A stretch of 64,000 nt of DNA from a virus. Under the pieces are notes generated by a model. That model did not search any database and had not been told where the DNA came from. It saw only the letters and a program-made list of their open reading frames with translations. Positions 4,232-38,755 of the stretch are shown here, piece after piece. The DNA lies in IMG/VR virus record IMGVR_UViG_3300032046_005540, positions 96,001-160,000 of that record; one strand, 5' to 3'. A program made the position numbers and the translations under genes. How positions within the stretch are numbered: position 1 is the first letter of the stretch; the number at the start of each line of letters is the position of its first letter.

Positions 4232-4232
4232 T

Positions 4233-18615: not shown

Positions 18616-19386
18616 TCACTTTATTTCTTTAAGATGATTAAACATAGATTGAGGAATCGATAAGTAAACACCATCTACAATATTTTTAACAACATCAATA
18701 ACCTTATTTGCTTGCAGTAAAGTATAAGTTGTAAAATCTTTATCCGAAATCTCTTTAAATGTATTTAAATAATCTTCAGGAATAACAACACCAGGAATTT
18801 TTGATAAATTATCTAAATGATTTTTAGATTTTGGAATCATTATACCTAATAACACAGGTAAATTATATGGTTCTATTTCTTTTAAAAATTTTAATGCTTG
18901 ACTTATAGTAAATACAGGTTGCGTTTGAAGGTAATCAGCACCAGCATCTATTTTACTTTGTAAATATTTGTGATCTATATTATTCGGATCTACGGCAACA
19001 CCAACCAAAATATTATAAGACTTTACTAACTTAATTACATCAACTATACACGCCCCACTCCAAAATCCTTTACTATGAGGATCCCCAGATAAAACAAGTA
19101 TTATATTTACACCAATTGATGCTGCCTGAAGCATATCAGATCTTATTATAACTTCAGATCTCCCAGAAAGAGGATAATGAACAATTACTTTAAAGCCTTC
19201 GGATATCAAATATTGTGCAGTATAAAGAGCTGGTAATTTAGGTTTTCCCATTGGATTAGAAACAACACTAATAGTATCAATACCTACTTCTTTAAGTATT
19301 TTAATATGTTGAGATAGTTCTTTTAAATTTCCACTACCCGGAGGAATAATTTCAACAACTTTTGTAAAATTTGAAAACAATTTCAT
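18616..19386 (-). CDS. metF: methylenetetrahydrofolate reductase (MetF/YitJ C-terminal type)
   Basis: VEIIPP, ILVLSGDP, KIDAGADYLQTQPVF, PVLLGIM, IPGVVIP. Confidence 0.85.
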   Translation of the reverse strand: MKLFSNFTKVVEIIPPGSGNLKELSQHIKILKEVGIDTISVVSNPMGKPKLPALYTAQYLISEGFKVIVHYPLSGRSEVIIRSDMLQAASIGVNIILVLSGDPHSKGFWSGACIVDVIKLVKSYNILVGVAVDPNNIDHKYLQSKIDAGADYLQTQPVFTISQALKFLKEIEPYNLPVLLGIMIPKSKNHLDNLSKIPGVVIPEDYLNTFKEISDKDFTTYTLLQANKVIDVVKNIVDGVYLSIPQSMFNHLKEIK

Positions 19387-20372
19387 ATTTGCCTCATTAC
19401 TTCTAAATATTGGTTAACTCTAGTGGTAATTGTATGATTTTTCATTACTTCTTCCTGACCACATTTTGCTATTTGTTCTCTTTCATCGTCATGTTCTAAA
19501 TAATATATAACTTTAAATTTTAAATCTTCAATTGTTCCATCATAAGTTACTAAATGTTTCCCAGGAATAAAAAACTTTTCAAGATTATCCATAGGAGGAC
19601 AAATGAAAAAACATCCACAACCCATTGCTTTAAAAATTCTATCCGAAATTTTCCAACCCATATTATCTTTTATTACATGAAGAGTATCAAATGTTATTTT
19701 AGATTGCCTATAAACATTAGTCATTTCAGAACCATAAAGACATTGGTCGGAAGAATTTTCAGATATATTTCCAATAACCTTAACTTTACAAAAATCTTTT
19801 AAAGTATTAATACATTCCTCTCTCCTAAAAATGTTACGGCCTCTTTGCGAATTGCCTATAAAACAAATGTCATAAATTTCATAATTAGTATCTAACCTTT
19901 CAATTAAAGGTTTATAATATGTTTGATCATAATATTGGGGCAAAAACACTGCATTTTTTGCATAATCTTTTAATATTTCTGCCATTCCTTCAACTGATGT
20001 TATAATTAAATCAAATACTCCTTTATATCTACCCCAATATCCTAAATCATTTTTTGGTTTATAAGCATCAGCATTCCATAAAACTAACTTAAATCCCAAT
20101 TGTGATATTTTTTCAAAAAACTCTCTTGGTTCAACTCCTGCTCCAGTTACAAATACATAATCTGGATTAAATAATTTTACTGATTCAACCATATGAGTTT
20201 CATAGTTATATTTGGCAGTACCAGGAGGCAAAGGATGTTCATAGGGTAAACATCTTTCTGGCTCAATTAAACATTTAACTAAAACTTCATAGCCCAAATC
20301 TTTCATTTCCCGAGCAATCAAAAGACCATTTTGATAAGGCAAATTACAATAAACAAATGTTACTATTTTCAA
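19383..20372 (-). CDS. glycosyltransferase, CgeB/Glyco_trans_1_2 type
   Basis: DICFIGN, Y.QSKI, SDRIFKAMGCG, YYLEHDDEREQIA..GQ..V...HT...R. Confidence 0.85.
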   Translation of the reverse strand: MKIVTFVYCNLPYQNGLLIAREMKDLGYEVLVKCLIEPERCLPYEHPLPPGTAKYNYETHMVESVKLFNPDYVFVTGAGVEPREFFEKISQLGFKLVLWNADAYKPKNDLGYWGRYKGVFDLIITSVEGMAEILKDYAKNAVFLPQYYDQTYYKPLIERLDTNYEIYDICFIGNSQRGRNIFRREECINTLKDFCKVKVIGNISENSSDQCLYGSEMTNVYRQSKITFDTLHVIKDNMGWKISDRIFKAMGCGCFFICPPMDNLEKFFIPGKHLVTYDGTIEDLKFKVIYYLEHDDEREQIAKCGQEEVMKNHTITTRVNQYLEVMRQI

Positions 20373-21394
20373 AAATCACCCCCATCAATCACTTTTTGAA
20401 AAACATCTAAATACTGGGATTTTAAAACATTCCAAGAAAATTTATTCTCAATAATTTCTCTATTCCTTTTAGATACTTCTTTTAAATCAATGTTCATTAC
20501 AAAATTTATCTTAAAAACGAAATCATCTAAATCTGGTTCATAAACAACCTTTTCTTCACCAAAATGTGAATTATTTTTAACTTTTATAAGAAATTTTTTA
20601 TCTTCAACAACTTCATTCATTGGAGGAGCATCAGTTGTTATAACAGGAAAACCACAAGCCATTGCTTCATATATAGGAAGGCCATTTCCTTCAAAATGTG
20701 ATGGTGCTAAATAAATATCTCCTTCTTTATAAAGATCCATTATTTCAGGTTTTTCACCTACTCTTAAATCAACACCCTCAAGGCAGCCATATTTTTCAAG
20801 AGGAACTTGAGAATTTATAATTAACTTCACCTTCTCTTTATCTAACTTTTGAAAAGCTCTTAAAACTAAATCAGTACCTTTTCTTTTAAAATCTACATAA
20901 CCAGCATTATGTAATAATACTTTGTTTTCCCCTCTTTGAATAAATTTAAAATAATCTGTATCAATAGGATAAGGTAAATAATAACATTTCCATCCTTTAG
21001 ATTTTATTATATTATAACTCCACTTATTAACACAAAGCCACAAATCTACAAAATCTTTATACTTTTCAAGAATAGGTGTTCTTACACTATCTAACATAGG
21101 AATATAAACAATTTTAATTCCTTTTTCTTTTAAAATTTTTAAATAATCCCAACAAAAAGGATATTCTATTATCAAAACAACATCTAAACCAAAATTTATA
21201 AATTTTTCTAAAGCTTCTTTACTCAGATTTTCTTTTGAAGTTATTACAAAACTACATCTTAAATCATTTAAATTAGTGCCTTTTGCTTCCCATCTTATAA
21301 CAAGTTGACTATTAATTTCAAGATGTTTCCTAAAAAATTTTAACATTACTCCTAAACCAGAGTTATTAGCATATCCTATTGTGCCTATTCTCAT
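20369..21394 (-). CDS. GT4 glycosyltransferase
   Basis: RKGTD, PSHFEGNGLPIYEAMACGFPVITTD. Confidence 0.9.
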   Translation of the reverse strand: MRIGTIGYANNSGLGVMLKFFRKHLEINSQLVIRWEAKGTNLNDLRCSFVITSKENLSKEALEKFINFGLDVVLIIEYPFCWDYLKILKEKGIKIVYIPMLDSVRTPILEKYKDFVDLWLCVNKWSYNIIKSKGWKCYYLPYPIDTDYFKFIQRGENKVLLHNAGYVDFKRKGTDLVLRAFQKLDKEKVKLIINSQVPLEKYGCLEGVDLRVGEKPEIMDLYKEGDIYLAPSHFEGNGLPIYEAMACGFPVITTDAPPMNEVVEDKKFLIKVKNNSHFGEEKVVYEPDLDDFVFKINFVMNIDLKEVSKRNREIIENKFSWNVLKSQYLDVFQKVIDGGDF

Positions 21395-22347
21395 AATTTT
21401 AGTTTTTTCTTAATAATTGAAAGGTATCTACCAACACTTTTATCAATAGTATATTTATCAAAAATTTCTTTTTGCCCTTTTAATGCTATCTTTTCTCTCG
21501 CATCTTCGTGTTTTAAATAATAATCAATTTTCTCTAACATTTCTTCTTTAGTATGAAAAACATCAAGATGTTTTTTAAGAATAAAAAGCTCTTCAATTCC
21601 TGGAATATATTCAGTTAAAAGAAAACATCCACATCCCATAACCTGATACATTCTAACAGAAAATTGTAGGTTGTAATTTAATTCTCCTCCAGAAATCATA
21701 TTCAAACCTATTTTAGATTTCTTATAACAATCTGCTATAAATTTTCCATCATAATTAATAACACTTCCTAAAGAACTAAATCCCCATCCAACAATTATTG
21801 TTCTATATCCCTTTTTAACTATTTCTTTAAGGTATTCTTCTCTTTGTAGAGAACAAGGCGTTTTATTACCTACAAAAATAACATCATCTGCTTTTGCTAA
21901 AATATTATCTGATTTATAATAAGTATGATCAAAAAAATGAGGACTCCAAACAACTTTATCTGTATAAGGTTTTGCAATCTCAATATGCCCTTTCATTGTA
22001 GTTATAAATAAATCAATAATATCAAACGCTTCTAAAAATAAATGTTTTGAATTTTTTTGATTAAGCCAATAAGCATCTGGATGCCATATTACAATTTTTG
22101 CTCCCAAACTTTTTAAACATTTAATAATATCAAAGCCTCGATTTATTCCTCCAGTCTGAAATACAAAATCAGGTTTAAATTCTAAATAAAGAATTCTAAT
22201 TTGTTCTGCTGATTGATCAAAAAATCCAATAACAATTTCATGCCCTTGTCTTTTTAACTCTTCTACAATTCTAATACCATCCTGATATTCATTCAAACCA
22301 TTGCAAGTTTTAAAAGGAAACCTTTTTACAATCACTAATATCTTCAT
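21391..22347 (-). CDS. glycosyltransferase, CgeB type
   Basis: DVIFVG, SKIGLN, RMYQVMGCG.FLLTE, EKIDYYL.H...REKIA. Confidence 0.85.
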   Translation of the reverse strand: MKILVIVKRFPFKTCNGLNEYQDGIRIVEELKRQGHEIVIGFFDQSAEQIRILYLEFKPDFVFQTGGINRGFDIIKCLKSLGAKIVIWHPDAYWLNQKNSKHLFLEAFDIIDLFITTMKGHIEIAKPYTDKVVWSPHFFDHTYYKSDNILAKADDVIFVGNKTPCSLQREEYLKEIVKKGYRTIIVGWGFSSLGSVINYDGKFIADCYKKSKIGLNMISGGELNYNLQFSVRMYQVMGCGCFLLTEYIPGIEELFILKKHLDVFHTKEEMLEKIDYYLKHEDAREKIALKGQKEIFDKYTIDKSVGRYLSIIKKKLKL

Positions 22348-23285
22348 AAATATACTCTCTTTTTAATTACATCTAAATATTGATTTACACGGGCATCAAT
22401 GTCATGTTTTTCCATTACCTCTTGATATCCTTGTATAGCTATTTTTTCTCTAATCTTTGGATGTTCCAAATAATAATCAATTTTTTCTATCATTTCTTCT
22501 TTAGTATGGAAAACATCGAGGTGAACTCCAGGAATAAACATTGTTTCAATATTAGGAATGTATTCAGTTAAAAGGAAACATCCACTTCCCATAACTTGAT
22601 ACACTCTAACTGAAAATTGTAAATCACAATTAAATATACCTCCAGAAACTATATTTAATCCTATTTTAGAACTTTTATATGCTTTCGCAATATGCTCTCC
22701 ATTCCAATCTGCTTTAGTTTCTTCATCATTAATAGTAAAACCATGCCCGACAACTTTTAACTTATACTTTTTCTCAAGCTCTTTTAAATATTCTTCTCTT
22801 TGAGGAGATGCTTCAGTTTTTCCTCCAATAAAACAAATGCCATTTTCTTGCTTAATATTCTTATTTGTTTTAAAAAAAGTTGAATCAAAATAGTGAGGAG
22901 CCCAAACTACCTTATCAGTATAAGATTTTGAAACTTCAACATGACCTCTCATTGTAACTAAAAACAAATCAAACACGTTAAAAGCATCTAAAAAATAAGA
23001 TCTGGAAGGTTCTCTAAATAACCAATAAGCATCAGGATACCACATTACTAATTTTGCACCTAAATCTTTTAAACTATTTTGAACTCCAAGGTTACCTTTT
23101 GAATGTCCCATTCCTGTTTGAAATACAAAATCAGGCTGAAATTTTCTATATCTTGATATATAATCTTCTATTGATTTTCCAAAAGAAGCAGTATGAGTTT
23201 CATGACCCAATCGAGATAACGACTCTTGTATTCGTATTCCATCAGAAAAAGAATTTTTAGTTTCTATGATTAACATTATTTTCAT
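22344..23285 (-). CDS. glycosyltransferase, CgeB type (paralogue of 21391..22347)
   Basis: Same motifs as its neighbour. Start probably 23285 (track 23345). Confidence 0.85.
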   Translation of the reverse strand: MKIMLIIETKNSFSDGIRIQESLSRLGHETHTASFGKSIEDYISRYRKFQPDFVFQTGMGHSKGNLGVQNSLKDLGAKLVMWYPDAYWLFREPSRSYFLDAFNVFDLFLVTMRGHVEVSKSYTDKVVWAPHYFDSTFFKTNKNIKQENGICFIGGKTEASPQREEYLKELEKKYKLKVVGHGFTINDEETKADWNGEHIAKAYKSSKIGLNIVSGGIFNCDLQFSVRVYQVMGSGCFLLTEYIPNIETMFIPGVHLDVFHTKEEMIEKIDYYLEHPKIREKIAIQGYQEVMEKHDIDARVNQYLDVIKKRVYL

Positions 23286-23287
23286 AT

Positions 23288-24034
23288 TTACATACCTTCT
23301 ACAAAAGGATCTACATCTCTCCATAAGAGTAAAATACATGGCCAATCTTTAGTTTTATTCATTAATTGTTTACTAGATCTTAAATCAATTATACCATCCT
23401 TACATATTCTACCATATGAAAAACCTAATTTTTCAACTAAATTAAAAAATTGTAATTCAGTAAAACCAGCTAATTCGTAATGACGATTACTGAGTTCACA
23501 CACCATTACTAATTTAGAACTGCGATTAATAAGATTTTGAAGTCCTTCAATTACCCCAACCTCAGCACCATCTACAACAATTTTAATAAAATCTGCTTTC
23601 TCAACATTTTGTAAAATATCATCTCCAACAGCTACTTCTAAATCTAATTCTTTTTTATTTTTATAATAAGAAACTCCAGTCTTATTATGTAATCCAAAAT
23701 TAAAAGGTTTAATATTTTTATATAATTCTGAATTCTTTACAAGAACCTCATAAGTACCGAAAAATGGTTCAAAAGCATAAATAATTCCTGTTTCTCCTAT
23801 TTTTTGAGAAGCCATTACAGAATATATTCCTACATTTGCACCAACATCAATACAAGTCATTCCTGGTTTTAAATATTTACCTACAACATCAAGTTTTTCA
23901 TTTTCATAAGTACCTAACTTAATACATTTGCTAACAAAATAATCACTACCCACTCTAACTTTTTCATCTTTTTTGGCTTCATCATCTTTATCAAGAAGCC
24001 ACATTTTTCCTACAAAAGTATCAACTAATTCCAT
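23288..24034 (-). CDS. FkbM family methyltransferase
   Basis: GTYE, IDVGANVG.YS, YAFEP, FIKI.VDGAE..V..G. Start probably 24034. Confidence 0.88.
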   Translation of the reverse strand: MELVDTFVGKMWLLDKDDEAKKDEKVRVGSDYFVSKCIKLGTYENEKLDVVGKYLKPGMTCIDVGANVGIYSVMASQKIGETGIIYAFEPFFGTYEVLVKNSELYKNIKPFNFGLHNKTGVSYYKNKKELDLEVAVGDDILQNVEKADFIKIVVDGAEVGVIEGLQNLINRSSKLVMVCELSNRHYELAGFTELQFFNLVEKLGFSYGRICKDGIIDLRSSKQLMNKTKDWPCILLLWRDVDPFVEGM

Positions 24035-24045
24035 TATTATTCTCC

Positions 24046-24786
24046 TTACGGTTTTTGTAAAACTACTCCTACAGGCATGCATCTCGACACATACATTGGA
24101 TATGTTTTACAAAATTTTGAAAAAAGAGTATCAAAATTATCAAAATTATCTTTATCATTTAATAATTTTAAACCAGTATCTTCAATTAATTCTTTAATTT
24201 TGTCTGGAGTATAACATGTAATAATTGGATCCGCAGGACTTCCATACCATGTCTTAAACTCTTTGTAAGCTTCTAAAGTAAAAACAATTCTACCCCCAGG
24301 TTTTAAAATTCTATCTAATTCTTTAAATATAATTTTTGCATCTTCTATTGGATTATGCTCTAAAGAACTACAAGAAACAATATGATCAAAAAAATTACTT
24401 TCAAAATTTGTACATTTTAAATTTTGACAAGAAAATCTCAGGTCTACATCAAATTGTTTTTCTTTTTCTTTTGACCACTCTTCAATATGACTACCTCTTC
24501 TATCTACAGTATATAATTCATAACGTTTTGCTAAAAAAATTTGAAAAACTCCTCTACCACATCCAGCATCCAAAATTTTATCTTTTGGAAGAAATGCAGC
24601 CTCTGGTATTGCTTTTACTGGAAGATGCCAGTATATCCAAGGATAGTCTAACATATATTGGCTTATAGCAAGGCTTTCTTCAGCTTCTTTAATGCTATGG
24701 CTTGTTCTACATATTTCAATCAATTCCTCATTTACTCTTTGATATTCAAATGTATTTTTCAAATCAATATCTAATAATTCTATCAT
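24046..24786 (-). CDS. class I SAM-dependent methyltransferase
   Basis: ILDAGCGRG, FDHIVSCSSLEH, RILKPGG. Confidence 0.88.
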   Translation of the reverse strand: MIELLDIDLKNTFEYQRVNEELIEICRTSHSIKEAEESLAISQYMLDYPWIYWHLPVKAIPEAAFLPKDKILDAGCGRGVFQIFLAKRYELYTVDRRGSHIEEWSKEKEKQFDVDLRFSCQNLKCTNFESNFFDHIVSCSSLEHNPIEDAKIIFKELDRILKPGGRIVFTLEAYKEFKTWYGSPADPIITCYTPDKIKELIEDTGLKLLNDKDNFDNFDTLFSKFCKTYPMYVSRCMPVGVVLQKP

Positions 24787-24803
24787 TATTTTACTCCTCT
24801 TAT

Positions 24804-25526
24804 TTATTTTGTTTTTGAAAAAATTACTCCTAAAGGAATAAATTCCCTACTTTTACATACCGAATATTCATTAAATATATCTACAATAATTTCTTCAATT
24901 TGATTAAAATTATTACCAGAATTAAACAAATATAAATTTGTATTTTCAATTAATTCTTTTATTTCTTTTTCAGTATAACAAGTTATAATAGGATCTCTAA
25001 CAGATGGATAAATAACTTTAAATTTTTTCCAAGCAACCAAAGTAAAAATAATTAATCCCCCAGGCTTCAAAATTCTATCCATTTCTTTAAATATTAATTT
25101 AACATCCTCAAAAGAATTATGTTCTAATGAACTACATGAAACTATATAATCAAAAAAATTATCTTCATAATTAGTATTTTTTAAATTTTCTTCTTTAAAA
25201 TTAATTTTTATATTAAATTGTTTTTCTCTTTTTACTATCCAAGAATTATAGATTTCTTTTCTCTTATCACAATTATAAACTTCTGCTCCTTCCAAAGCTA
25301 AATATAATTGAAGCGTTCCTATTCCTCCTCCAGCATCCAAAATTCTCTTTCCTGAAATTTCTGGTAAATGAATTATAATCCAAGGATAATCAAGCATATA
25401 TGATGATATTGCTAATCCTTTTTTACCTTGCAATTTAGTTACTTGTGTATAAATATTAAGTAATTTTTTACTTATTTCTTGATATTCTTTTCTATTTTTA
25501 ATGTTAGAGTTTAATAACTCAATCAT
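24804..25526 (-). CDS. class I SAM-dependent methyltransferase (paralogue of 24046..24786)
   Basis: ILDAGGGIG, FDYIVSCSSLEH, RILKPGG; shares YMLDYPW. Confidence 0.88.
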   Translation of the reverse strand: MIELLNSNIKNRKEYQEISKKLLNIYTQVTKLQGKKGLAISSYMLDYPWIIIHLPEISGKRILDAGGGIGTLQLYLALEGAEVYNCDKRKEIYNSWIVKREKQFNIKINFKEENLKNTNYEDNFFDYIVSCSSLEHNSFEDVKLIFKEMDRILKPGGLIIFTLVAWKKFKVIYPSVRDPIITCYTEKEIKELIENTNLYLFNSGNNFNQIEEIIVDIFNEYSVCKSREFIPLGVIFSKTK

Positions 25527-26770: not shown

Positions 26771-26783
26771 TTTTTCTTTCCTT

Positions 26784-30844: not shown

Positions 30845-31618
30845 CTATTTTCCTATATAAGGTTTTAAATATTGAACAATTCTTTCTGTATTATTTAAAA
30901 TATCGTTTTCCCAAAATCTTAATAAAATAAAATTACTTTCTTTTGCTATTTGCTTATGTTTCTCTTCTCTTTGTTTATTTTTTATTTGAACAAAATTTAA
31001 TTTTTCAAATTTTTTAGGATTCCCATGCCAATAGTCTCCATCAACTTCAATGAGAATGTTAGTATTTGAAAGATGAAAGTCAAAAAGATGATTTCCTAAT
31101 CGAAATTGATGTTCAAAAGGAATACCTAAAGAATTTAATATTTCTTTCATTTTTAATTCAGGTTTAGTATCTTTATAAGGGCCTTTATAATTTTTCATTT
31201 TAAATAAAACTGATTCTCGCATTTTTTGTTTTGCCTCTTCAGAATTAATAAAACCCAAAGTTTCTTTTCTTTTTAAACGAGCTTTACTTAACTTTTGTTT
31301 TGTTTCATCAGAACGAAGTTTACTATATTTAGCTACTCTTTCATCTGTTTCTTTTGTTAGATCTTTATTCCAAGCCTGCTTACCATACATAGGATTATTT
31401 TTACCAGATTGATTTCTTCCATACATAGGATTCTTATCACCTTTATTAGCACAACTATAACATCTAATAGATTTTCTATCAATTTCTTTCCCGCAATCAA
31501 TACAATATAAAGGATATTTTCCAGACCAAAGAGGATTTAATTCTCCTTTTTTTGCACAAGAAGAACAACGTTTTCCAAATCCTTTAATTTCTTTTTCACA
31601 ATCTATACACTTATTCAT
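30845..31618 (-). CDS. free-standing endonuclease: Zn-ribbon/NUMOD3 + DUF559/Vsr-like nuclease domain
   Basis: CIDC repeats, NPMYG, TKPELKM, FDF...IEVDGDYWH, LLRFWE. Confidence 0.82.
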   Translation of the reverse strand: MNKCIDCEKEIKGFGKRCSSCAKKGELNPLWSGKYPLYCIDCGKEIDRKSIRCYSCANKGDKNPMYGRNQSGKNNPMYGKQAWNKDLTKETDERVAKYSKLRSDETKQKLSKARLKRKETLGFINSEEAKQKMRESVLFKMKNYKGPYKDTKPELKMKEILNSLGIPFEHQFRLGNHLFDFHLSNTNILIEVDGDYWHGNPKKFEKLNFVQIKNKQREEKHKQIAKESNFILLRFWENDILNNTERIVQYLKPYIGK

Positions 31619-32547
31619 TATAATACCTTCTCAATTTCCTTTAAATATTCCCGAACTCTAATATTAATTGTATGGTCTTCTAAAACTCTCTGTTGACCAC
31701 TTCTTGCTATTTGTTCTCTTTCATCTTCATGCTCCAAGTAGTAATCAATCTTATCATATAAATCTTTTTCACCATCAAATACTACTAAATGTTTTCCATT
31801 ATCAAATAATTGATTTAAATCTATAATATTTTGAGTTAAACAAAACGATCCACAGCCTAAAATCTTATATATACGATCAGACATTTGAAGAGAACAAGGA
31901 TTTAGCACTGTAATAAAATTCAAAGCAATTTTTGAATTCCTATATATATTTGCAATTTCTTTAGTTTCCACAGCAATACTTGGAACATTAAATCCTCTTC
32001 CAACAACTTTTATTTTATATTTTTCATACAACTTAGGAATACACTCATTCCGATCTGGAGAAATACCCCCGTTATTATTTCCGATAAAACATATATTATA
32101 TATTTCACATTTTGGATCCAATCTTTCAATATTTGGTTTATAATAAGTTTGATCATAATATTGAGGTCCCCAAACAACTTTTTTAGCAAAACCTTCAAGT
32201 TGAGGAACAATTCCTTTTACTGCAACTAAAATTAAATCAAACTTTCCTTTTACCTGTTTAAAAAACTCAGTATCTGGAGAAAAGGTAGGCCCATACGCAT
32301 CTGGATACCATAAAACTAATTTATGTCCTAATTGTTTTAAAGGCAATAAATGTTGAGGAGAAGCAGTTCGTCCACCACATTGTAAAACGAAATTAGGTTT
32401 ATATTGTTCTACACTTTTAACAATTTCAGAAGAAGGAGCACCGACTGGGAAAGTAAAAACTTCATGTCCTTCTTCTCTAAAAACTCTCGCCATAAGCAAA
32501 CCATTCTGATTTGTCGAGTGTAAAGGAGCTAAAATAAATATTTTCAT
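31618..32547 (-). CDS. glycosyltransferase, CgeB type (paralogue of 19383..20372)
   Basis: PQYYDQTYYKP.IERLD, ICFIGN, SDRIYKILGCG, YYLEHEDEREQIA. Confidence 0.85.
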   Translation of the reverse strand: MKIFILAPLHSTNQNGLLMARVFREEGHEVFTFPVGAPSSEIVKSVEQYKPNFVLQCGGRTASPQHLLPLKQLGHKLVLWYPDAYGPTFSPDTEFFKQVKGKFDLILVAVKGIVPQLEGFAKKVVWGPQYYDQTYYKPNIERLDPKCEIYNICFIGNNNGGISPDRNECIPKLYEKYKIKVVGRGFNVPSIAVETKEIANIYRNSKIALNFITVLNPCSLQMSDRIYKILGCGSFCLTQNIIDLNQLFDNGKHLVVFDGEKDLYDKIDYYLEHEDEREQIARSGQQRVLEDHTINIRVREYLKEIEKVL

Positions 32548-32555
32548 TTTAATCC

Positions 32556-33074
32556 TCAATAAGGATAAATTTTCGAAATCTTTTTTGCTTGAACACCTAA
32601 ATCATAAAAATATGCATTAGATCTTGGATCTCTTCCACCAATTTCAAAACCAGCACTTTCAACCAGGTCATCTAATCTTTTTCTGTCAAATGTTAATCGA
32701 TGAACATTCTCTCCATACTCTTGATTTCCAAATAGTAATCTACTAAATTCTGCACAAGGTATTTTACCTTCTATATAATCTTTAGCAATTTTTTCAGCAT
32801 CAGGACAATAAATTCTCAATACCCCTTCTGATTTCAAAATTCTATACCACTCTGCTAATGTTTTTATTATTTTATTTGGATGAATATGCTCTATTGTATG
32901 AGATATTCTAATTTCATCTACTGAGTCATCTTTAAACATTGGTAAGTCTGTAATATCATGTATAATATCAACTCCCGGAAGATTCCTTATATCAATATTA
33001 GTAAAACCTATTAATATAGGAGATCCAGGACCTCCTTCATACTTTTCTGCTCCTCCTAAATTTAATTTCAACAT
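32556..33074 (-). CDS. SAM-dependent methyltransferase (type 11-like)
   Basis: KLNLGG...GFTNID, SVDEI..SH.IEH, EWYRILK..G.L.I..PD. Confidence 0.82.
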   Translation of the reverse strand: MLKLNLGGAEKYEGGPGSPILIGFTNIDIRNLPGVDIIHDITDLPMFKDDSVDEIRISHTIEHIHPNKIIKTLAEWYRILKSEGVLRIYCPDAEKIAKDYIEGKIPCAEFSRLLFGNQEYGENVHRLTFDRKRLDDLVESAGFEIGGRDPRSNAYFYDLGVQAKKISKIYPY

Positions 33075-33772
33075 ATTTTTCCCAAAACTTCAATTTCTTT
33101 TAAATCTTTTATAACAATCAATTTTAAATCTTTATATCCATATTCATTTAACAATTTTCTTCTTTTTGTATAATACTGTTTATCAGTTAATTTAAAATCA
33201 AATGAATGAAATTCAACTACAATTTTATCATTTATTAAAAAATCAAACCTATTTAAAAAATTATGTTTAACTTTAAAACCTAATTCTTTTAGTTTTATAT
33301 AACAATCTTTTTCTGATAAAGAAGGGAAAAATTCATTGTCATAATAACATTTCTTACCATGACTATTTCTTAATGAGCGTTGGATAGCTTCTGGAGTACT
33401 ATATATAAAATTTTCTCTTTTTTTCAATGTATCACTAATTTTCTTTTTTGTTTTTTCAGAATGGGGAATATCTTTATTCCAAGAAGATATGCCTATATGA
33501 GATTTGCTCATATTTCTTTTCCATTCTTTAGAAAAAGGAGGACGTTTTTTACCTTTTCTTGACTTACTTATTTTTTCTCTAACTTCTGGTCTTTTTGCCG
33601 GATTATTTTCACCAACAAGTTTTCCTTTATTCTTTTTACTTATTTTCATTTTTGTTTTATTAGAATGATGTTCCCCATAAAAAGGATTTCTTACACCTTT
33701 GTGAGAACAAACAGCACATCTCTTAGCTAATCTACTAATTTCTTTTTCACAATCAATACAATAATTTTTCAT
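33068..33772 (-). CDS. free-standing NUMOD3-domain putative homing endonuclease
   Basis: CIDC, NPFYG.HHS..TK.KIS, HSEKTKKKIS; C-terminal S..E...FDF.....VEFH nuclease-like domain. Confidence 0.75.
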   Translation of the reverse strand: MKNYCIDCEKEISRLAKRCAVCSHKGVRNPFYGEHHSNKTKMKISKKNKGKLVGENNPAKRPEVREKISKSRKGKKRPPFSKEWKRNMSKSHIGISSWNKDIPHSEKTKKKISDTLKKRENFIYSTPEAIQRSLRNSHGKKCYYDNEFFPSLSEKDCYIKLKELGFKVKHNFLNRFDFLINDKIVVEFHSFDFKLTDKQYYTKRRKLLNEYGYKDLKLIVIKDLKEIEVLGKIC

Positions 33773-33773
33773 A

Positions 33774-34715
33774 TTATATTTTTTCTAAAAGCTTTACAAC
33801 TTTATTATTATTATTTTCCATCACTGAAACTGCTATATTCTTTGATAAGATACACAAATCTTTATACAAAATAGAATCAAAATAAATTTTTTTGATCTTC
33901 TCTCCTATTAAAATAGGGTTATCAAGATTTTCAATAAAACAAAACTTTTTTAAAGTAGAATCTTCAACATACCAAGATATACTAGGACTAACAACTGAAG
34001 GAATACTCAACATTGCAAGTTCCCAAGTCGAATAATTAAAACTTTCGCTAAACGAAATCTGTATTCCCAATCTTACAGTATTCATTAAATCTAAAAGTTG
34101 TTGCCTTTGTAATCTTGGGTATAACGTAATATTCTTCATATCAAATAAATTTGCAAAAAATTGGCACATTTGAACTTTTTCTTGTCCTGTTATAACAAAA
34201 GGATCTTCAACGCTTGAATATTTTATTGCTCCAAACATTGTTGCTAAATTTTTATGTTTATCTGAAGTCCCAAAAAAACAAATACTTTTCCTATCTTCTA
34301 CATTAAAACTATTTTTTGGTTGCAAATCCCATTGTAAAGCAGGAGGTAAATAAATAATTTTTTCATTTTTAAAAAGATAAGTTAGCCTTTCTGAAAGTAA
34401 AAATATATAATCAATATCTCCACTTTTTAACATATTCTTATATCTTAACAAAGCATCCAAATCCCCATTCAAACTTGAAGGAACCACATGAGCCTGAGCT
34501 AAAGGAGAACAAAAAAGAACTCCTATTTTCCTTCCTTTCTTCCTTAATCTCAATAAATCAATTTCTCCAATACCACAAGAAATAATCAAATCTCCATCTT
34601 GATCTTGGAGTTGTTCCCAAGGAATATGTTTAGTTTTCCCAGTAACTTCTAAATGTTTTAAGGCCCAATAAGCACCAGTATCTTGCCATGCTTGAGGGCA
34701 GGTTGTAATTATCAT
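33774..34715 (-). CDS. GT-B fold glycosyltransferase (paralogue of 29912..30844)
   Basis: LFCSP, HKNL, LGIQISFSESFNY..WE...IPSVVSPS..WY. Confidence 0.72.
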   Translation of the reverse strand: MIITTCPQAWQDTGAYWALKHLEVTGKTKHIPWEQLQDQDGDLIISCGIGEIDLLRLRKKGRKIGVLFCSPLAQAHVVPSSLNGDLDALLRYKNMLKSGDIDYIFLLSERLTYLFKNEKIIYLPPALQWDLQPKNSFNVEDRKSICFFGTSDKHKNLATMFGAIKYSSVEDPFVITGQEKVQMCQFFANLFDMKNITLYPRLQRQQLLDLMNTVRLGIQISFSESFNYSTWELAMLSIPSVVSPSISWYVEDSTLKKFCFIENLDNPILIGEKIKKIYFDSILYKDLCILSKNIAVSVMENNNNKVVKLLEKI

Positions 34716-34898
34716 ATTTTTTTACTATTTTAACTGCTCAAAGCAATTAGTTCACAAAGTTCGTCTATGTTTTCTCTTATTTTTCTAATTTCTTCTTTAA
34801 TCAATCCCCTTATATCTGGTTCTTTATAGGGTAATCCTTCTGTATACAACTCAATTTCTTGAATATTAAGTTGCAATTTTGTTATTAACATCCCAAAT

Positions 34899-35246
34899 TT
34901 AGATATCATTATTATCTCCTTTTGGTCCTTTATAATATGTCCCTATCTTTTTTCTATATGCTTTTACTCTCCTATATAAAACTTTTGAAAGTTCTTCTGC
35001 CTGTTCAGCATTTAACAAAATTTCATCGAAACTAAGTTCAGGTGTTTTCCATCCTTTAATATATTGCCAACATCTTTTTACCCTTTGCCACAAATTAGCA
35101 GGATCACTATATTGAATTTCAAAATAAAATACATCATCATTTTCATAAAATTTTTTATCTACACGAACAACCATTTTATCTTCACATCCGGCACACGAAC
35201 AGTATAATTCAAGTAGATCATCATAATAAGGTTTTATGGTTTTCAT
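34899..35246 (-). CDS. hypothetical protein
   Basis: 115-aa ORF containing LWQRVK..W.YI.G. Confidence 0.55.
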   Translation of the reverse strand: MKTIKPYYDDLLELYCSCAGCEDKMVVRVDKKFYENDDVFYFEIQYSDPANLWQRVKRCWQYIKGWKTPELSFDEILLNAEQAEELSKVLYRRVKAYRKKIGTYYKGPKGDNNDI

Positions 35247-35259
35247 AAAGTCTCCTAAT

Positions 35260-36204
35260 TCAATTTATAACTTTTTCAAAAATTTGTTTCCATTTATAAA
35301 TAAATCGTTCAGGGGGAAATACTTCTTTAACAAGTTGTTTTCCTCTTTGCCCAATTTTTTTTGCTCTCTCTGGATTTTCTAGTAACTCAATTATCTTTTT
35401 TCTTAAATCAGTAGCATTATTTGAAGTTAAAGCATTTATTCCATCTTTTAACAACAAATGCATTTCGCAACAATCTGTTGAAACTACGGGTGCACCAACT
35501 GCCATTGCCTCTAGCAAACTCATAGGAATGGGGGAGGCTGTGGCGGAATTAAAGTAAGCCCCAGCTTTTACTAATAGCTTTTTTATTTCATCATTGGGCA
35601 TTAATCCTTTACAAGCCTCCCCTATATTTTCATTACTATAACCATAAACTCTAACATCTTTTAATCCCCAAGTTGAATTAACCCAAAGTAAATAACCACA
35701 ACACCAATCTCTGTTTGGAAATTCGTTGCAAACAGTTATTATTGACTTTTCTCCTCCTTCATAATTTGGAAATTCATTTACATCTATTGCATGATAAATT
35801 ACAGAATTTTTATCATCCTCTTTCATTCCCCAAGCTTGCATACTTGATTTTGTTATAAAAATAGTATGATCAATAAATTTCTCTCTGTTTTCTTTCCAAG
35901 TATTCACATTCCAATCGTTATATGGCCAAGTATGCTCTGTAAAAACTCTTGGAATTAATTGAAAACCTTCCTCATAAGAAGAAATAATAGTTGGATGACG
36001 ATGAATAAGCATTAAATCAAAATCTTTTTGTTTATCTAAAGCTTCTTCTTTAGAAATCTCAAAAACATTATTGGGTTTTGATACTTGTTCATCCCAACAA
36101 ACTTTATTATTCTCATCTATAATATGATAAAATTCAACTTCTAGAATAGAAGCTAAATTCTTCTGATATGTAGAATGGGCGAAATGGGATAAAATTTTTA
36201 ACAT
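35260..36204 (-). CDS. GT4 glycosyltransferase
   Basis: IYHAID, SPIPMSLLEAMAVGAPVVST, G.RG...V...F. Confidence 0.88.
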   Translation of the reverse strand: MLKILSHFAHSTYQKNLASILEVEFYHIIDENNKVCWDEQVSKPNNVFEISKEEALDKQKDFDLMLIHRHPTIISSYEEGFQLIPRVFTEHTWPYNDWNVNTWKENREKFIDHTIFITKSSMQAWGMKEDDKNSVIYHAIDVNEFPNYEGGEKSIITVCNEFPNRDWCCGYLLWVNSTWGLKDVRVYGYSNENIGEACKGLMPNDEIKKLLVKAGAYFNSATASPIPMSLLEAMAVGAPVVSTDCCEMHLLLKDGINALTSNNATDLRKKIIELLENPERAKKIGQRGKQLVKEVFPPERFIYKWKQIFEKVIN

Positions 36205-36207
36205 TAT

Positions 36208-37362
36208 TTATATATTCTCCAAAAACAAATTTAATCTCTCAGCACTTTCTGTCCAAGTCAATTTTCTATCTATAAGTTCTTGTCTTTGCTCCAATGCTTT
36301 TTCTTTAGCCATTTCATTCTTTTCAAATGAACGAACCATTACTCTCTCAAACTCTTGCCAGTCAGGAATTGTAATTTGTTGTGGCGGCTCGTAGACGTGT
36401 TGCCAGAAAAGTTCTCTACGTAATTGTTCCCATTTATAGTTTAAAATAACAGTTTTCTCTGGATTTAAATATGTATCAGGAGCAGTTCCTCCAGTTGTAA
36501 TTATAGGTAACCCACTTGCTATTGCTTCTATAATAGGCATTCCAAAAGCTTCTCCTGAACTTGGCAAAATAAACACATCAGCATTATGATACAATTTACT
36601 CATATCTTCTGGTGTTAATGCCCCATGAACTAAATAAACTTTAGGCCCCTCCCCCAAACCTAATCCAGCGTGATTTCTTACAGCATTTATTTTTTCAATA
36701 CATTGAATTTTATCAATAGTCCCAGCACCTTTTCCATATACTTTTAAAATTAAACCAACATCTTTATTAGTTCTAAATGTTTTAAGAAAAGATAAAATCA
36801 TTTGAGATATATTTTTACGATCTCCAGGAGTCCATTGACCAATACTTAAAAAATTAAATTTTGTAGAAATTTCTTCTTTTGGAAGTAAAGGTTGTTTATC
36901 TAAAGTATACATATCAAAATCAACTCCAAATGGAATTGTAGTAATAGGAACCTTAACACCACTTTCCATAAATGTCTTTACATTAAAAGGTGTAGGAACT
37001 ATACATCCATCTAAACGATTTAAAATATAAGCCCAAGTTGGAGTAATTTTATCAGTTTCCAGCATAGTAAATCCAAAATATTTTTTATAATTATGAGGCC
37101 ATTGAAATTCAATAGGAATAGACATATGAATAAGAATACTTTCTTCAGGAGGGTATTCTTTTCTTCGTAGGAGATCAAGAATTTCACGATCTTCAGGAGA
37201 TAATTCAATATCTCCAGCAGTTAACCATTGAAGATTTTGTAAAGCAATATCGTAGGAATCTTTGTATTTTTTATAAAAAGCTAAAATCAAACTTCTACTT
37301 ACTGAACCATACCCTGAAAAATTATCTACAGTGGCTCTAAACACTACTTTCTTTTTATTCAT
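36208..37362 (-). CDS. GT4 glycosyltransferase
   Basis: SGYG, ETD, DRKN, PSSGEAFGMPIIEAIASGLP. Confidence 0.9.
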   Translation of the reverse strand: MNKKKVVFRATVDNFSGYGSVSRSLILAFYKKYKDSYDIALQNLQWLTAGDIELSPEDREILDLLRRKEYPPEESILIHMSIPIEFQWPHNYKKYFGFTMLETDKITPTWAYILNRLDGCIVPTPFNVKTFMESGVKVPITTIPFGVDFDMYTLDKQPLLPKEEISTKFNFLSIGQWTPGDRKNISQMILSFLKTFRTNKDVGLILKVYGKGAGTIDKIQCIEKINAVRNHAGLGLGEGPKVYLVHGALTPEDMSKLYHNADVFILPSSGEAFGMPIIEAIASGLPIITTGGTAPDTYLNPEKTVILNYKWEQLRRELFWQHVYEPPQQITIPDWQEFERVMVRSFEKNEMAKEKALEQRQELIDRKLTWTESAERLNLFLENI

Positions 37363-37537
37363 CTATACTCTCCTTCTTCTATTTCTTTTCTAAAGACAAT
37401 GAACATATCTAACTACAATTTTCTTTGGGCTAATTTTTATTAGTCCCTTTTTGTTTAATATTAATGTATTTCTAATTTCTATTCTACCCAAATCACGGTC
37501 AATTATTATATTAGATCTCATTTTAATTCCTTTCTTT

Positions 37538-38755
37538 TTATTTTGTTTCTGGAATTGTGGTAATTGTGTATTGAGGATATTTTTTCCAACTTACTACAGT
37601 TTCTTTCAAAACATTTTCAATATTTTCAACCATCTTCTCTGAAGAATAATTATCAACAATATGTTGTCTACATTTAGATGCCTTATCTTTTAACAATTCC
37701 TTATTAGAATAAGCTTCCTCTAAAGCTTCTAATACATCTTCATCCGATACAAATCTTTGATCAATATAAGGAACTTGTTGACTACCAAATTGACTAATAA
37801 CTTTAGGTTTAACTAACCAACCATTTTCTTCTGTAATTATTCCACCAGATCCAGCGGTCTCTGCGGCTATACATGGCGTTCCACAAGCCATAGATTCAGC
37901 TAAAGGTAATCCAAAACCTTCTGCATATGCAATGTTTATACTTATATCAAACATATTATATAAATGAGTTAAAAAAGTATCATCCTGACCTCTTGGTTCA
38001 CTCACCGCAACTGGAAGATCTGGATATAATGTATTTCGAAGATATAACAAATTAGTTCCTTCAGGATCAAAAGGACTTGAATGCAAAAACAATAAAACAT
38101 CTTTTTTATCTTTTGCAAATTTTGAAAATATTCTATAAAGATCTAATATTCTTTTACGTAAAATATTTCTTCCTACATATCCAACTATAAATTTAAAATC
38201 TACAAGTTGAGGTTGATTTTTAAAAATCTCTTTTTTAAAATTAGAAACTGTTTCCTCTGGAAGAATTTTAAACACTTCAGTATTTACTCCCATAGGAGCA
38301 TAAAAAATAGGGGTATCTTTATAATTATTGATTAGTAATTCATAAATAAATTTAGATCCGGCGGCAATTGCATCTGTAGAACGGTAAAATATAGTATTAA
38401 ATTTAGGAAAAGGTTGATCATCCCATAAATGATAGAAAACTAAAGGGCAAGCATTACGAATTTCATTATCAATTTCAAAAACATGAGTTAAATGTCTTGG
38501 ATCCGAATTTATAATCATTACATCTGGTTTATGTTCTTTTAAAACAAAACGGATATCATTAATGTTCGCATAATTATAAACAGAGTAAAGCACCATCCCA
38601 TTCCAAGGATATGCTTTAAAAGGTCCTGGATTTATAGAACCTGCAAGTATAATAATTTGATGACCTTTTGCTCTTAAACCTGTTAACAAATCTTTTCCTA
38701 CTTTACCATAACCAGTTGGAATTGTAGGGGAATCAGAAAGGTATAAAATCTTCAC
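37538..38755 (-). CDS. GT4 glycosyltransferase
   Basis: SDSP..PTGYG, GRN..RKR, EGFGLPLAESMACGTP; GTG start after GGAGG. Confidence 0.9.
   Translation of the reverse strand: MKILYLSDSPTIPTGYGKVGKDLLTGLRAKGHQIIILAGSINPGPFKAYPWNGMVLYSVYNYANINDIRFVLKEHKPDVMIINSDPRHLTHVFEIDNEIRNACPLVFYHLWDDQPFPKFNTIFYRSTDAIAAGSKFIYELLINNYKDTPIFYAPMGVNTEVFKILPEETVSNFKKEIFKNQPQLVDFKFIVGYVGRNILRKRILDLYRIFSKFAKDKKDVLLFLHSSPFDPEGTNLLYLRNTLYPDLPVAVSEPRGQDDTFLTHLYNMFDISINIAYAEGFGLPLAESMACGTPCIAAETAGSGGIITEENGWLVKPKVISQFGSQQVPYIDQRFVSDEDVLEALEEAYSNKELLKDKASKCRQHIVDNYSSEKMVENIENVLKETVVSWKKYPQYTITTIPETK

Follow-up and report, generated by a model that had tools for sequence, protein, structure and literature searches.

Candidate tail-protein glycosylation locus with twelve glycosyltransferases in an uncultured phage

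Background

In 2023, Freeman et al. (Cell Host Microbe, as cited in PMC12619734 and PMC12801897) reportedly described mycobacteriophages (Che8, Corndog and Myrna) that glycosylate their virion proteins in the cytoplasm with soluble glycosyltransferases (GTs), sometimes together with a methyltransferase, encoded beside structural genes. Glycan machinery is also found in giant viruses, in the fibril clusters of Mimivirus and for the capsid glycans of chloroviruses (reviewed in PMC9614988). In Bacillus subtilis, CgeB, which gave Pfam family PF13524 its name, is a putative O-glycosyltransferase of the spore-crust protein CgeA (PMC13577073). GT clusters with which phages glycosylate 5hmC can adjoin structural genes and encode GTs similar to enzymes for LPS and teichoic acid (Pyle et al., bioRxiv 10.1101/2023.12.21.572611), and a published cyanophage with 13 GTs has been read as remodelling the host envelope (PMC12801897).

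Here, we analysed a 20-kb locus lying directly after the tail-fibre genes of an uncultured phage, known from a 168-kb virus record that is about 90% complete. It encodes 12 GT-B glycosyltransferases, six SAM methyltransferases, a DegT aminotransferase and a methylenetetrahydrofolate reductase (MTHFR).

Results

Layout and enzyme content of the locus

The locus spans positions 18616–38755 of the window, the whole 64,000-nt stretch of the record under analysis. It is 98.8% coding, with every gene on the minus strand and 14 of its 22 junctions overlapping. Its first gene is on the strand of the fibre genes and starts 88 nt past the last of them, in keeping with the orientation and the place just after the tail module given in the original prediction, which had been made from the sequence alone. 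The genome's extended −10 promoter motif was not found between window positions 16455 and 59461. The locus closes the tail operon and is not placed among the early genes, and a replication and modification module adjoins it. The phage appears lytic, judged by the replication and virion genes identified.

GTs were called with the Pfam cut-offs for PF00534 (GT4) and PF13524 (CgeB-type). The predicted inventory of 12 GTs (five GT4, four CgeB-type and three other GT-B) with a DegT aminotransferase and a MetF was recovered gene for gene by Pfam, hhalign and AlphaFold2/Foldseek. HMM typing, the check proposed at the time, carried the first two groups over their cut-offs and gave weak results for the last three, which were settled by hhalign or a structure model. 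Among the five GT4 enzymes are the three core families nearest the fibres: GT1 (37538–38755; PF00534, PF13439 and PF20706 over cut-offs; invariant EX7E motif, E279/E287), with 277 family representatives at E≤1e-30; GT2 (36208–37362; PF00534 and PF20706 over cut-offs; invariant EX7E, E271/E279); and GT3 (35260–36204; PF00534, 52 bits). The other two lie at 27881–28939 (77 bits) and 20369–21394 (GT4c; 67 bits; EX7E at residues 235–243). The CgeB-type enzymes, at 81–97 bits, are paralogues with 30–52% mutual identity by BLASTP. They comprise 31618–32559 (92 bits), 19383–20372 (97 bits) and a tandem pair, 21391–22347 (81 bits) and 22344–23345 (93 bits), which are 52% identical; none matched a solved structure by sequence. 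The three divergent GT-B enzymes include a GT4-like protein (28929–29915) with 23 bits to PF00534, below the cut-off, and a 98% probability in hhalign against a GT4 profile. The remaining two (29912–30844 and 33774–34715) are paralogues, 29% identical, and 29912–30844 carries an invariant EX7E-like motif. An AlphaFold2 model of their family alignment (pLDDT 81) was GT-B, and its Foldseek matches were the GT-B/GT4 enzymes SenB, WaaG, TarM, ManT and SdgB (probability 1.0, TM 0.6–0.69). None of the locus GTs reached an NCBIfam equivalog cut-off. Since all are generic GT4 or GT-B enzymes, homology does not name their acceptor.

Six methyltransferase genes are present, as predicted, one of them broken. 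The intact five are an FkbM-family enzyme (23288–24082; PF05050; 61 bits to TIGR01444, above the cut-off), a tandem pair of class I SAM methyltransferases matching Methyltransf_11/25 (24046–24786 and 24804–25526; 49% identical), and two minimal class I enzymes of 167 aa (26784–27287) and 172 aa (32556–33074), both matching Methyltransf_11 with an N-terminal LNLGCG motif I in the alignment. The sixth, a class I methyltransferase (27300–27884), is interrupted by an in-frame TGA at 27722–27720 that replaces the motif-I glycine. Read through, it aligns end to end with a 194-aa orthologue in the related contig G001, with the stop opposite Gly. Of 158 ORFs, 34 end normally in TGA, and this gene is probably a pseudogene or a sequence variant.

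The DegT/DnrJ/EryC1 NDP-ketosugar aminotransferase (25526–26803; PF01041, 371 bits) is perosamine-synthase/LegC-like. Among solved structures its best match is GDP-perosamine synthase (3BN1, E 4e-86), and its 309 bits to the LegC family lie below the equivalog cut-off. The last gene of the locus encodes a MetF-like MTHFR (18616–19386; PF02219, 66 bits) whose start overlaps the upstream GT stop by 4 nt; in NCBIfam it best matches the MTHFR half of a bifunctional homocysteine methyltransferase/MTHFR. An orthologue occupies the same place in G001, and because MetE-like genes lie within the G001 locus, MTHFR most likely feeds the methylases.

Three further ORFs, absent from the predicted inventory, lie between these genes. 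A free-standing homing endonuclease with NUMOD3 and Vsr/DUF559-type nuclease domains by Pfam (30845–31618) separates two GT genes that overlap at the matching G001 junction, where it is missing. Its N-terminal part is 29% identical to a second NUMOD3 homing-endonuclease-like ORF (33068–33772), in which Pfam recognised no nuclease domain and which is also absent in G001. A 115-aa ORF (34899–35246) had no Pfam or NCBIfam match.

Conserved order in relatives

The arrangement of fibres, GT1–GT2–GT3 and further GTs recurs in at least seven other uncultured contigs, with GT1 39–80% identical. The order baseplate J, gpI-like protein, fibres, GT1, GT2, GT3 was found in G001, L008, L016, L022, L025 and L026, and GT3 is kept after GT1–GT2 in G001, L008, L016 and L025–L027. 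In L027 the GT order continues; the CgeB-type enzyme at 31618–32559, part of the conserved core order, and GT4c are both kept in L025–L027. Accessory genes vary among relatives and include a formyltransferase, GT2s, LicD with a cytidylyltransferase, and MetE.

Ser-Gly-Ser is enriched in structural proteins

Ser-Gly-Ser (SGS) was the top dispersed tripeptide. It occurs 33 times in the phage's late structural proteins against 4.2 expected (P about 8e-19), and 13 times against 8.1 expected in the rest of the genome. The strongest candidate acceptor is a 469-aa gpI-like distal baseplate (wedge) protein (41846–43255, minus strand), with ten SGS against 0.41 expected, four of them invariant down to 42% identity. 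All 12 gpI-like homologues carry 7–11 SGS against 0.3–0.5 expected, and the gpI-like protein of L007 has nine against 0.28. In this family, 10 of 20 Ser residues inside SGS are invariant, compared with 3 of 31 outside it (Fisher P 0.001 with Ser and Gly combined). Three paralogous fibre-like proteins of 309, 335 and 348 aa (38844–41833, minus strand; 38–41% identity) are further candidates, with three, two and four SGS against 0.2–0.3 expected each.

Across relatives, structural ORFs of L022 hold 22 SGS against 3.0 expected, and L030, in which a GT1 homologue directly follows fibre-like genes, has a weak excess (7 against 3.6). The baseplate and fibre proteins of T4, the sole external negative control, showed no excess (5 against 5.1). 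The tripeptide could alternatively form a structural turn or be targeted by some other modification, and the gpI-like structure model is too poor to show SGS exposure. Among the identified structural proteins, which do not include the capsid protein, the signal was seen in baseplate, fibre, sheath and neck proteins.

Soluble enzymes and the envelope and free-glycan readings

In a hydropathy scan of every ORF of the 168-kb record, no protein showed more than three membrane-like segments, and none of the locus proteins had a convincing TM segment. The phage genome encodes no flippase, polymerase, polyprenyl-phosphate transferase, initiating transferase or ligase, which upholds the earlier observation that a flippase, Wzy and a polyprenyl-phosphate transferase are missing and that the GTs lack TM segments. 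Nor did we find a nucleotidyltransferase, a 4,6-dehydratase or other enzymes of nucleotide-sugar synthesis in the phage.

Solubility by itself would also suit host-envelope glycan synthesis or remodelling. ABC-transporter-dependent O-antigen synthesis typically uses GT4 enzymes without TM segments, which build lipid-linked O-antigens on host carriers. The locus GTs might act in the same way at the inner membrane face, on a host undecaprenyl-linked intermediate or teichoic-acid-like polymers, with export by host flippases or ABC transporters. The changed cell surface could, for example, block superinfection or keep progeny off debris. Weak best matches to WaaG/RfaG, PglH/PglJ and EpsE-type enzymes point this way, as does the pairing of LicD with a cytidylyltransferase in L022, common in teichoic-acid and LPS decoration, and the 13-GT cyanophage was interpreted accordingly (PMC12801897). 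We nevertheless consider this reading unlikely: the phage lacks an initiating transferase, flippase, polymerase and ligase of its own, the position at the tail operon end is not that of an early gene set, the conserved SGS excess is left unexplained, and twelve GTs, 12% of the genome, would be a large cost for surface remodelling by an apparently lytic phage.

The many methyltransferases, with methyl-cycle support encoded in the locus, would also fit a methylated oligosaccharide, free in the cytoplasm or released, or a small molecule bearing sugars, produced during infection and akin to the polymethylated polysaccharides of mycobacteria or to a natural product decorated with sugars. Sequence and fold matches include ManT (7QSG), the methylmannose-polysaccharide mannosyltransferase, and the best matches include the small-acceptor enzymes BshA, MshA and SenB. 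These matches are, however, generic to GT4; the locus has no PKS, NRPS, cyclase or other scaffold-forming enzyme, and this reading leaves both the fixed place behind the fibres and the excess of SGS unexplained, making such a product very improbable.

DNA hypermodification and phage immuto

The original prediction had named DNA hypermodification as its alternative. In that case an oligosaccharide assembled by the GTs on a modified base of the phage DNA would block restriction. The replication and modification module lies beside the locus, and 5hmC-type GT clusters with envelope-like GTs do occur near structural genes (bioRxiv 10.1101/2023.12.21.572611). Known routes to 5hmC, 5hmU and 5hoC need a ThyA homologue (Lee et al., PMC13326640). 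We found no ThyA homologue, TET or C5 DNA methylase in the 168-kb record, whose roughly 90% completeness leaves some room for one; ThyX matched at only 14 bits. The other route to DNA glycosylation combines a C5 methylase with TET. In addition, no locus GT matched the T4-type DNA GT family in Pfam, and QueD-, QueE- and DpdA-like ORFs, detected by tblastn, constitute a separate 7-deazaguanine module.

Flavobacterium phage immuto provides a comparison from an independent lineage. It has colinear GT1–GT2 homologues at 30% identity, a DegT-type aminotransferase and a methyltransferase in the cluster, and a 7-deazaguanine DNA system, yet LC-UV-MS of its DNA showed only dA, dC, dT and fdPreQ1, a 7-deazaguanine derivative, and no glycosylated base (bioRxiv 10.1101/2023.04.13.536721). 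Its baseplate and fibre proteins hold 34 SGS against 7.9 expected, compared with 1 against 3.7 in its other ORFs. The immuto cluster differs in being half the size, in lying away from the fibre genes (the GT1–GT2 pair adjoins no structural genes there or in L028), and in having GT2-family and epimerase genes but no CgeB-type GTs or MTHFR; a literature search found no study of its function. Together, these observations weaken the DNA alternative, which we regard as most improbable.

Discussion

We favour, at a probability of a little under 60%, a reading in which a methylated, amino-sugar glycan is O-linked to baseplate and fibre proteins in the cytoplasm. A late cytoplasmic pathway would decorate the phage's own outward-facing gpI-like wedge protein, its three fibre paralogues and other baseplate, sheath and neck proteins. 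We infer the enzymatic steps, the serine linkage and the acceptor from the observed gene content, enzyme solubility, synteny, and motif statistics and conservation. Nucleotide sugars would come from host metabolism, the phage having no nucleotidyltransferase or 4,6-dehydratase, and DegT would convert an NDP-4-keto-6-deoxyhexose to a 4-amino sugar of the perosamine type. GT1–GT2–GT3, conserved, predicted to be catalytically intact and encoded beside the fibre genes, may initiate the glycan on Ser of Ser-Gly-Ser, and the CgeB-type and other GT-B enzymes may extend and branch it. The five intact methyltransferases would then methylate the glycan, with MTHFR (plus MetE in a relative) feeding the methyl cycle that regenerates SAM.

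The enzyme set fits, by homology, the methylated amino-sugar glycan made in the cytoplasm that was originally proposed. For the proposed glycan coat on the virion, fibre–GT synteny, a conserved SGS excess limited to outward-facing late structural proteins and the CgeB precedent indirectly favour an acceptor among virion proteins. "Coat" may be too broad a word for a signal that comes from proteins of the baseplate, fibres, sheath and neck. A host acceptor, lipid-linked or otherwise, may take the place of a virion protein. If tail-protein glycosylation is the true reading, sugar-coating on this scale is without description for phages.

Compared with the mycobacteriophages, the present locus holds 12 GTs, six methyltransferases, an aminotransferase and an MTHFR in 20 kb where those phages reportedly use a few GTs. 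Their acceptors reportedly lie in the C-terminal portions of capsid and tail-tube subunits, whereas the candidate sites here are internal Ser-Gly-Ser in baseplate and fibre proteins. The host phylum also differs, and tblastn found no mycobacteriophage homologue of GT1. Phage DNA sugar clusters are likewise multi-GT, sometimes near structural genes and drawn from envelope-glycan families, but they require either a ThyA homologue or a C5 methylase together with TET, and neither was found in this phage's genome (bioRxiv 10.1101/2023.12.21.572611; PMC13326640). With B. subtilis CgeB the locus shares PF13524, in four copies, and the use of a soluble cytoplasmic GT-B, there acting on a protein from a surface layer that assembles itself; the evidence on CgeB is preliminary too, the phage enzymes have low identity to it, and the particle is a spore, not a virion. 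Giant viruses differ in being eukaryotic viruses that also encode nucleotide-sugar synthesis, none of which was found here, and the only GT orthology seen with their systems is a weak match to PBCV-1 B736L (E 6e-6). The Mimivirus DegT-type aminotransferase L136 distantly matches the locus DegT (7MFO, E 3e-15), and the predicted pathway would resemble those of Mimivirus and chloroviruses in being virus-encoded and cytoplasmic and in placing methylated amino-sugar glycans on virion surface proteins (PMC9614988).

Position and layout of the locus

Virion-protein glycosylation centred on the baseplate and fibres would best explain this locus, with a probability of about 0.57 on the genomic evidence assembled here. 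The phage belongs to an uncultured lineage, and its linear IMG/VR record of 168,267 bp (GC about 30%, about 90% complete by the CheckV estimate), of which the window covers bases 96001-160000, carries all genes of the window on the minus strand. In reading order the tail sheath (62551-63921) comes first, only about 30% identical to the sheaths of cluster C mycobacteriophages, followed by tail and baseplate proteins including baseplate J (43265-44677), a gpI-like distal baseplate protein of 469 aa (41846-43255) and three paralogous fibre-like proteins (38844-41833). The glycan locus then runs from 38755 down to 18616, and beyond it lie a small ORF, an SF2 helicase (16455-17936) and the replication genes. 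A gap of 88 nt separates the last fibre gene from the start of GT1 (37538-38755), the first of three core GT4-family genes, continued by GT2 (36208-37362) and GT3 (35260-36204). Coding density in the locus reaches 98.8%, stop and start codons overlap at 14 of 22 junctions, and a megablast search with the 20-kb locus returned zero matches in 50,697 phage records. Between the locus and the replication genes, at 11984-12526 and 15430-15954, are a YkuD-type L,D-transpeptidase and a DUF6884 protein. Outside the window (genome 165185-168055, L036 5185-8055), a 956-aa protein, presumably a beta-helical fibre, consists almost entirely of a 15-residue repeat (SDANV....NQQ.I.) in about 60 copies.

Three ORFs of the locus had escaped the original prediction: one of 115 aa that matches no known family (34899-35246) and two NUMOD3 homing-endonuclease-like ORFs (30845-31618 and 33068-33772) lying between glycosyltransferase genes. 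In G001, a related uncultured contig, the same glycosyltransferase genes overlap each other and carry no endonucleases. Free-standing homing endonucleases (NUMOD3, HNH and Vsr-like) are unusually abundant in this genome, with at least eight: besides the two in the locus, two fall in the tail module (49878-50984, 61622-62527) and others on further stretches of the record (L034 5949-6776, 10170-11207 and 14069-15064; L036 1565-2551). A PHROGs search of candidates for the capsid protein also gave mostly homing endonucleases.

One methyltransferase gene, previously placed at 27300-27677, starts at 27884. It is otherwise full length, and an in-frame TGA (27722-27720) replaces the third glycine of its SAM-binding motif I; the G001 orthologue is intact, with a glycine opposite the TGA. 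We considered recoding of TGA (code 4 or 25) and rejected it, as 34 of 158 long ORFs terminate in TGA and the genes are contiguous under table 11. Since TGA is a normal stop in this genome, the gene carries a nonsense change, whether as a pseudogene, as a variant in the population or through an assembly error.

A conserved core with a variable periphery

G001 spans 107 kb in IMG/VR, encodes proteins 55-80% identical to those studied here, and has the same block between its fibre paralogues and the genes for MTHFR and the helicase. It differs in having two FkbM genes, a single class I methyltransferase where the present locus has two, one more minimal methyltransferase and two additional ORFs resembling MetE. 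The order baseplate J, gpI-like protein, fibres, GT1, GT2, GT3 is kept in more distant contigs, and GT1 adjoins the fibre genes in at least six relatives. Two of these contigs (L025, L026) share the glycosyltransferase order GT1, GT2, GT3, CgeB, GT4, CgeB, to which a third (L027) adds DegT. Another contig of 168 kb (L007/L016), with a gpI-like protein 40% identical, encodes CgeB-type glycosyltransferases, GT2s and a sugar-type formyltransferase; in it an RNA-repair pair, RtcB and RNA ligase, is inserted among the glycosyltransferase genes (L016 10001-13412). In L022, LicD and a cytidylyltransferase stand just before GT1 (17126-18116), suggesting phosphocholine or polyol-phosphate decoration of the same glycan. 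The shared order and the differing accessories thus define a conserved core of about six glycosyltransferases with a variable periphery, an arrangement typical of surface-glycan loci. One relative, L008, 72% identical, is in a MAG labelled Candidatus Cloacimonetes, possibly through a binning effect. Distant GT1 homologues with a methyltransferase also occur in two cultured siphoviruses, Synechococcus phage S-CBS4 (between portal and head genes, L033 5049-7415) and Tetrasphaera phage TJE1 (beside sugar-nucleotide genes, immediately upstream of terminase, L032 908-6251).

Enzymes of the locus

Pfam bore out the gene content first read from the sequence at this locus. PF00534 cut-offs were exceeded by five proteins, as expected for the five GT4 enzymes proposed, and the four CgeB-type proteins scored 81-97 bits against PF13524 (cut-off 25). 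The three remaining GT-B candidates fell below Pfam cut-offs and were therefore examined by profile and structure comparison, which upheld them: 28929 (locus genes are named by their first window coordinate) matched a GT4 profile at 98% probability in hhalign, and the 29912/33774 family, at only 70% in the same comparison, gave an AlphaFold2 model (pLDDT 81) that Foldseek aligned to SenB, WaaG, TarM, ManT and SdgB with probability 1.0 and TM 0.6-0.69. The EX7E motif is invariant in GT1 and GT2 and present in 20369, 29912 and 33774; in 27881 and 28929 the second Glu alone is clear, and a pattern search of GT3 found none. The PF00534, hhalign and Foldseek matches, and EX7E where it is seen, place the non-CgeB glycosyltransferases of the locus with the GT4-type retaining enzymes (GT-B fold), a family marked by two Rossmann-like domains and by EX7E in the C-terminal one.

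None of them reached an NCBIfam equivalog cut-off, and their solved relatives, by PDB sequence matches, are generic GT4 proteins (BshA, sucrose-phosphate-synthase-like proteins and PBCV-1 B736L), so the acceptor is not readable from homology. That the product is a free glycan or small molecule is very unlikely. GT1 and GT2 each score above the cut-off of PF20706, a subgroup of GT4 that was described in work on biological-conflict systems (PMC8195603). A GtfA/GtfB-type pair, in which one GT4-like partner is catalytically dead, was rejected because EX7E is invariant in both; matches to GtfA and SdgA were weak (E 1e-4 to 7e-4). The GT1 family numbers 277 representatives (E<=1e-30) in a set of 1.84 billion clustered proteins. 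Its 780-910-aa homologues proved to be GT1 genes split by an intein, not GT1-GT2 fusions: in P0027, P0061 and about 15 others, the intein (Intein_splicing plus LAGLIDADG) sits at the catalytic EX7E motif. An intein in a glycosyltransferase is unusual and suggests strong conservation of GT1 in phage populations.

The predicted six methyltransferases, DegT and MTHFR were likewise recovered by Pfam, the methyltransferases as FkbM and five of class I. Two methyltransferase-like proteins of about 170 aa belong to one conserved family, whose motif I lies right at the N-terminus. DegT scored 371 bits against PF01041, and its closest solved relative is GDP-perosamine synthase 3BN1 (E 4e-86); it stayed below the NCBIfam equivalog cut-offs for LegC (309 against 420) and PseC (273 against 423), and is therefore classed as an NDP-4-ketosugar aminotransferase whose exact sugar homology does not name. 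Neither a sugar nucleotidyltransferase nor an SDR dehydratase/epimerase is encoded in the genome, so the host must supply nucleotide sugars and the keto-sugar.

MTHFR passed the PF02219 cut-off (66 bits, residues 11-238) and reached no NCBIfam equivalog cut-off. Inside the G001 glycan locus, two adjacent MetE-like ORFs (G001 contig 18825-20770, L003 15884-17829; Meth_synt_2, E 3e-88) encode the catalytic and N-terminal-type domains of cobalamin-independent methionine synthase. Acting in sequence, MTHFR and MetE convert methylene-THF to methionine, and these ORFs together with MTHFR are a phage-borne methyl-cycle segment. The most economical reading is that MTHFR supports SAM regeneration for the methylases, which would mean a phage funding its own methyl supply.

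Ser-Gly-Ser as a candidate acceptor site

The tripeptide Ser-Gly-Ser (SGS) is strongly over-represented in the structural proteins. With the composition of each single protein as the basis for expected counts, the ORFs that run from the fibres to the end of the contig upstream hold 33 SGS versus 4.2 expected (P ~8e-19), and the remaining 41,000 residues of the genome hold 13 versus 8.1. With the tripeptides of one tandem-repeat protein set aside, SGS is the most enriched tripeptide. Ten sites lie in the gpI-like protein, three, two and four in the fibres, four and three in two baseplate proteins, and three in the sheath. The excess recurs in four related contigs (G001, L008, L007 and L022). 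All 12 gpI-like homologues, down to 42% identity, have 7-11 SGS versus 0.3-0.5 expected; four sites are invariant and the others are gained or lost between relatives. Within these homologues, Ser or Gly is invariant at 14 of 30 positions inside SGS versus 7 of 56 elsewhere (Fisher P 0.001). The AlphaFold2 model of the gpI-like protein (pLDDT 39) is too poor to place the sites at the surface.

Control baseplate, fibre, sheath and capsid proteins of T4 showed no excess (5 versus 5.1). The cultured Flavobacterium phage immuto has an 11-kb glycan cluster with colinear GT1 and GT2 homologues, 30% identical, and its baseplate and fibre proteins contain 34 SGS versus 7.9 expected, its other ORFs 1 versus 3.7. 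SGS was rejected as a universal companion of GT1, as the contig L030, whose GT1 homologue directly follows fibre-like genes, shows a two-fold, non-significant excess (7 versus 3.6). The complex methylated amino-sugar glycan first proposed for the virion is supported in part: the SGS excess and the fibre-glycosyltransferase synteny add baseplate and fibre proteins as acceptor candidates, and homology leaves the exact sugar and acceptor unspecified.

DNA or host surface as a possible target

Glycosylation of DNA, the alternative raised at the outset, is the least probable explanation. In the systems known, phage DNA glycosylation begins with 5hmC, 5hmU or 5hoC made via ThyA homologues, or with TET-oxidised 5mC (bioRxiv 10.1101/2023.12.21.572611; PMC13326640), and the hydroxylated-base enzyme it needs has no match here: across the 168-kb record, about 90% complete, ThyA (PF00303), C5 methylase (PF00145) and TET (PF12851) profiles found nothing, and ThyX, at 14 bits, stayed under its cut-off. 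Little weight attaches to the TET result, as that model also failed to match any control genome. The genome does carry a 7-deazaguanine DNA-modification system, with QueD-, QueE- and DpdA-like ORFs (window 2136-5481 and genome 86431-87225) 23-33% identical to the immuto 7-deazaguanine genes; the PF01702 profile misses the DpdA-like ORF, which is 23% identical to immuto DpdA. Beyond dA, dC and dT, digestion of immuto DNA released one further nucleoside, fdPreQ1 (bioRxiv 10.1101/2023.04.13.536721). As immuto has the same glycosyltransferase pair and a similar cluster, this published profile shows such a phage without a glycosylated base and argues against DNA as the target.

A glycan made for the host surface is unlikely, if less so. 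Lipid-linked O-antigens are built by peripheral GT4 enzymes, and host carriers and exporters could be borrowed. The predicted lack of membrane machinery (flippase, polymerase, polyprenyl-phosphate transferase) held for the whole record, in which no ORF has more than three TM-like segments. The genome was found not to encode the lipid-linked pathway set of initiating transferase, flippase or ABC permease, and polymerase or ligase, for which host enzymes could substitute. Against a host-surface product stand this want of an initiating or export gene in the phage, the position of the locus at the end of the tail operon, and the SGS pattern, which it leaves unexplained.

Transcription

Consensus scans for sigma-70 promoters and terminators gave counts equal to those in shuffles and are silent on timing. 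A k-mer search found an extended -10 motif, TTTGTGTATAATATATT, at about 18 genome sites, usually about 38 nt before a start codon: window 15386, 16383, 59499 and 59883 and about 14 elsewhere, clustered at genome 27-41 kb. None falls in the 43 kb from the tail genes to the helicase (window 16455-59461), a stretch whose sole clear terminator follows gene 58967-59461. From the missing internal motif and the terminator placement we infer that the locus is probably read through from the tail genes, which weakly favours co-transcription and leaves late expression unproven.

Implications and comparison with known systems

Taken together, these data allow a more specific, still tentative reading: this lineage and Immutovirus may possess sequon-directed cytoplasmic O-glycosylation, in which a conserved, phage-specific pair of GT4 enzymes reads SGS on baseplate and fibre proteins and up to ten further glycosyltransferases, with methylases, an amino-sugar enzyme and methyl-cycle enzymes, build a long, strain-variable methylated heteroglycan. 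Such a phage 'glycocalyx' on the host-recognition apparatus would be comparable in complexity to giant-virus fibril glycans. If true, phage glycoproteins could be predicted from sequence by a recognisable acceptor tag and a conserved pair of initiating enzymes, and the many glycosyltransferases of large phages, now usually annotated as DNA- or LPS-modifying, would be accounted for. Tail fibres would gain a new variable layer bearing on host range, defence evasion and immune recognition of therapeutic phages. The idea is directly testable in the cultured immuto, which shares the core and grows on Flavobacterium sp. LMO8.

Virion glycosylation by the phage's own enzymes is well established in mycobacteriophages, as are complex methylated amino-sugar glycans in giant viruses; the present reading, if true, would extend virion glycosylation to environmental tailed phages. 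As in the mycobacteriophage type, the glycosyltransferase genes lie beside virion structural genes. For GT1, the one query used, homology to the mycobacteriophage enzymes was not seen: of 50,697 phage records searched by tblastn, 16 gave a match, and none of these was from a mycobacteriophage. A locus of 12 glycosyltransferases with methyl-cycle support, linked to a candidate sequon in environmental tailed phages, appears undescribed in the literature searched. There the largest published number of glycosyltransferases in a marine phage is 13; these are dispersed over its genome and were interpreted as modifying host or DNA (PMC12801897). Work on the CgeB family is confined to one member, CgeB, which has been proposed to add sugar to the spore-crust protein CgeA inside the cytoplasm of the mother cell (PMC13577073). 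Among bacterial systems, the spore crust comes nearest to the decoration of a particle that is put together in the cytoplasm.
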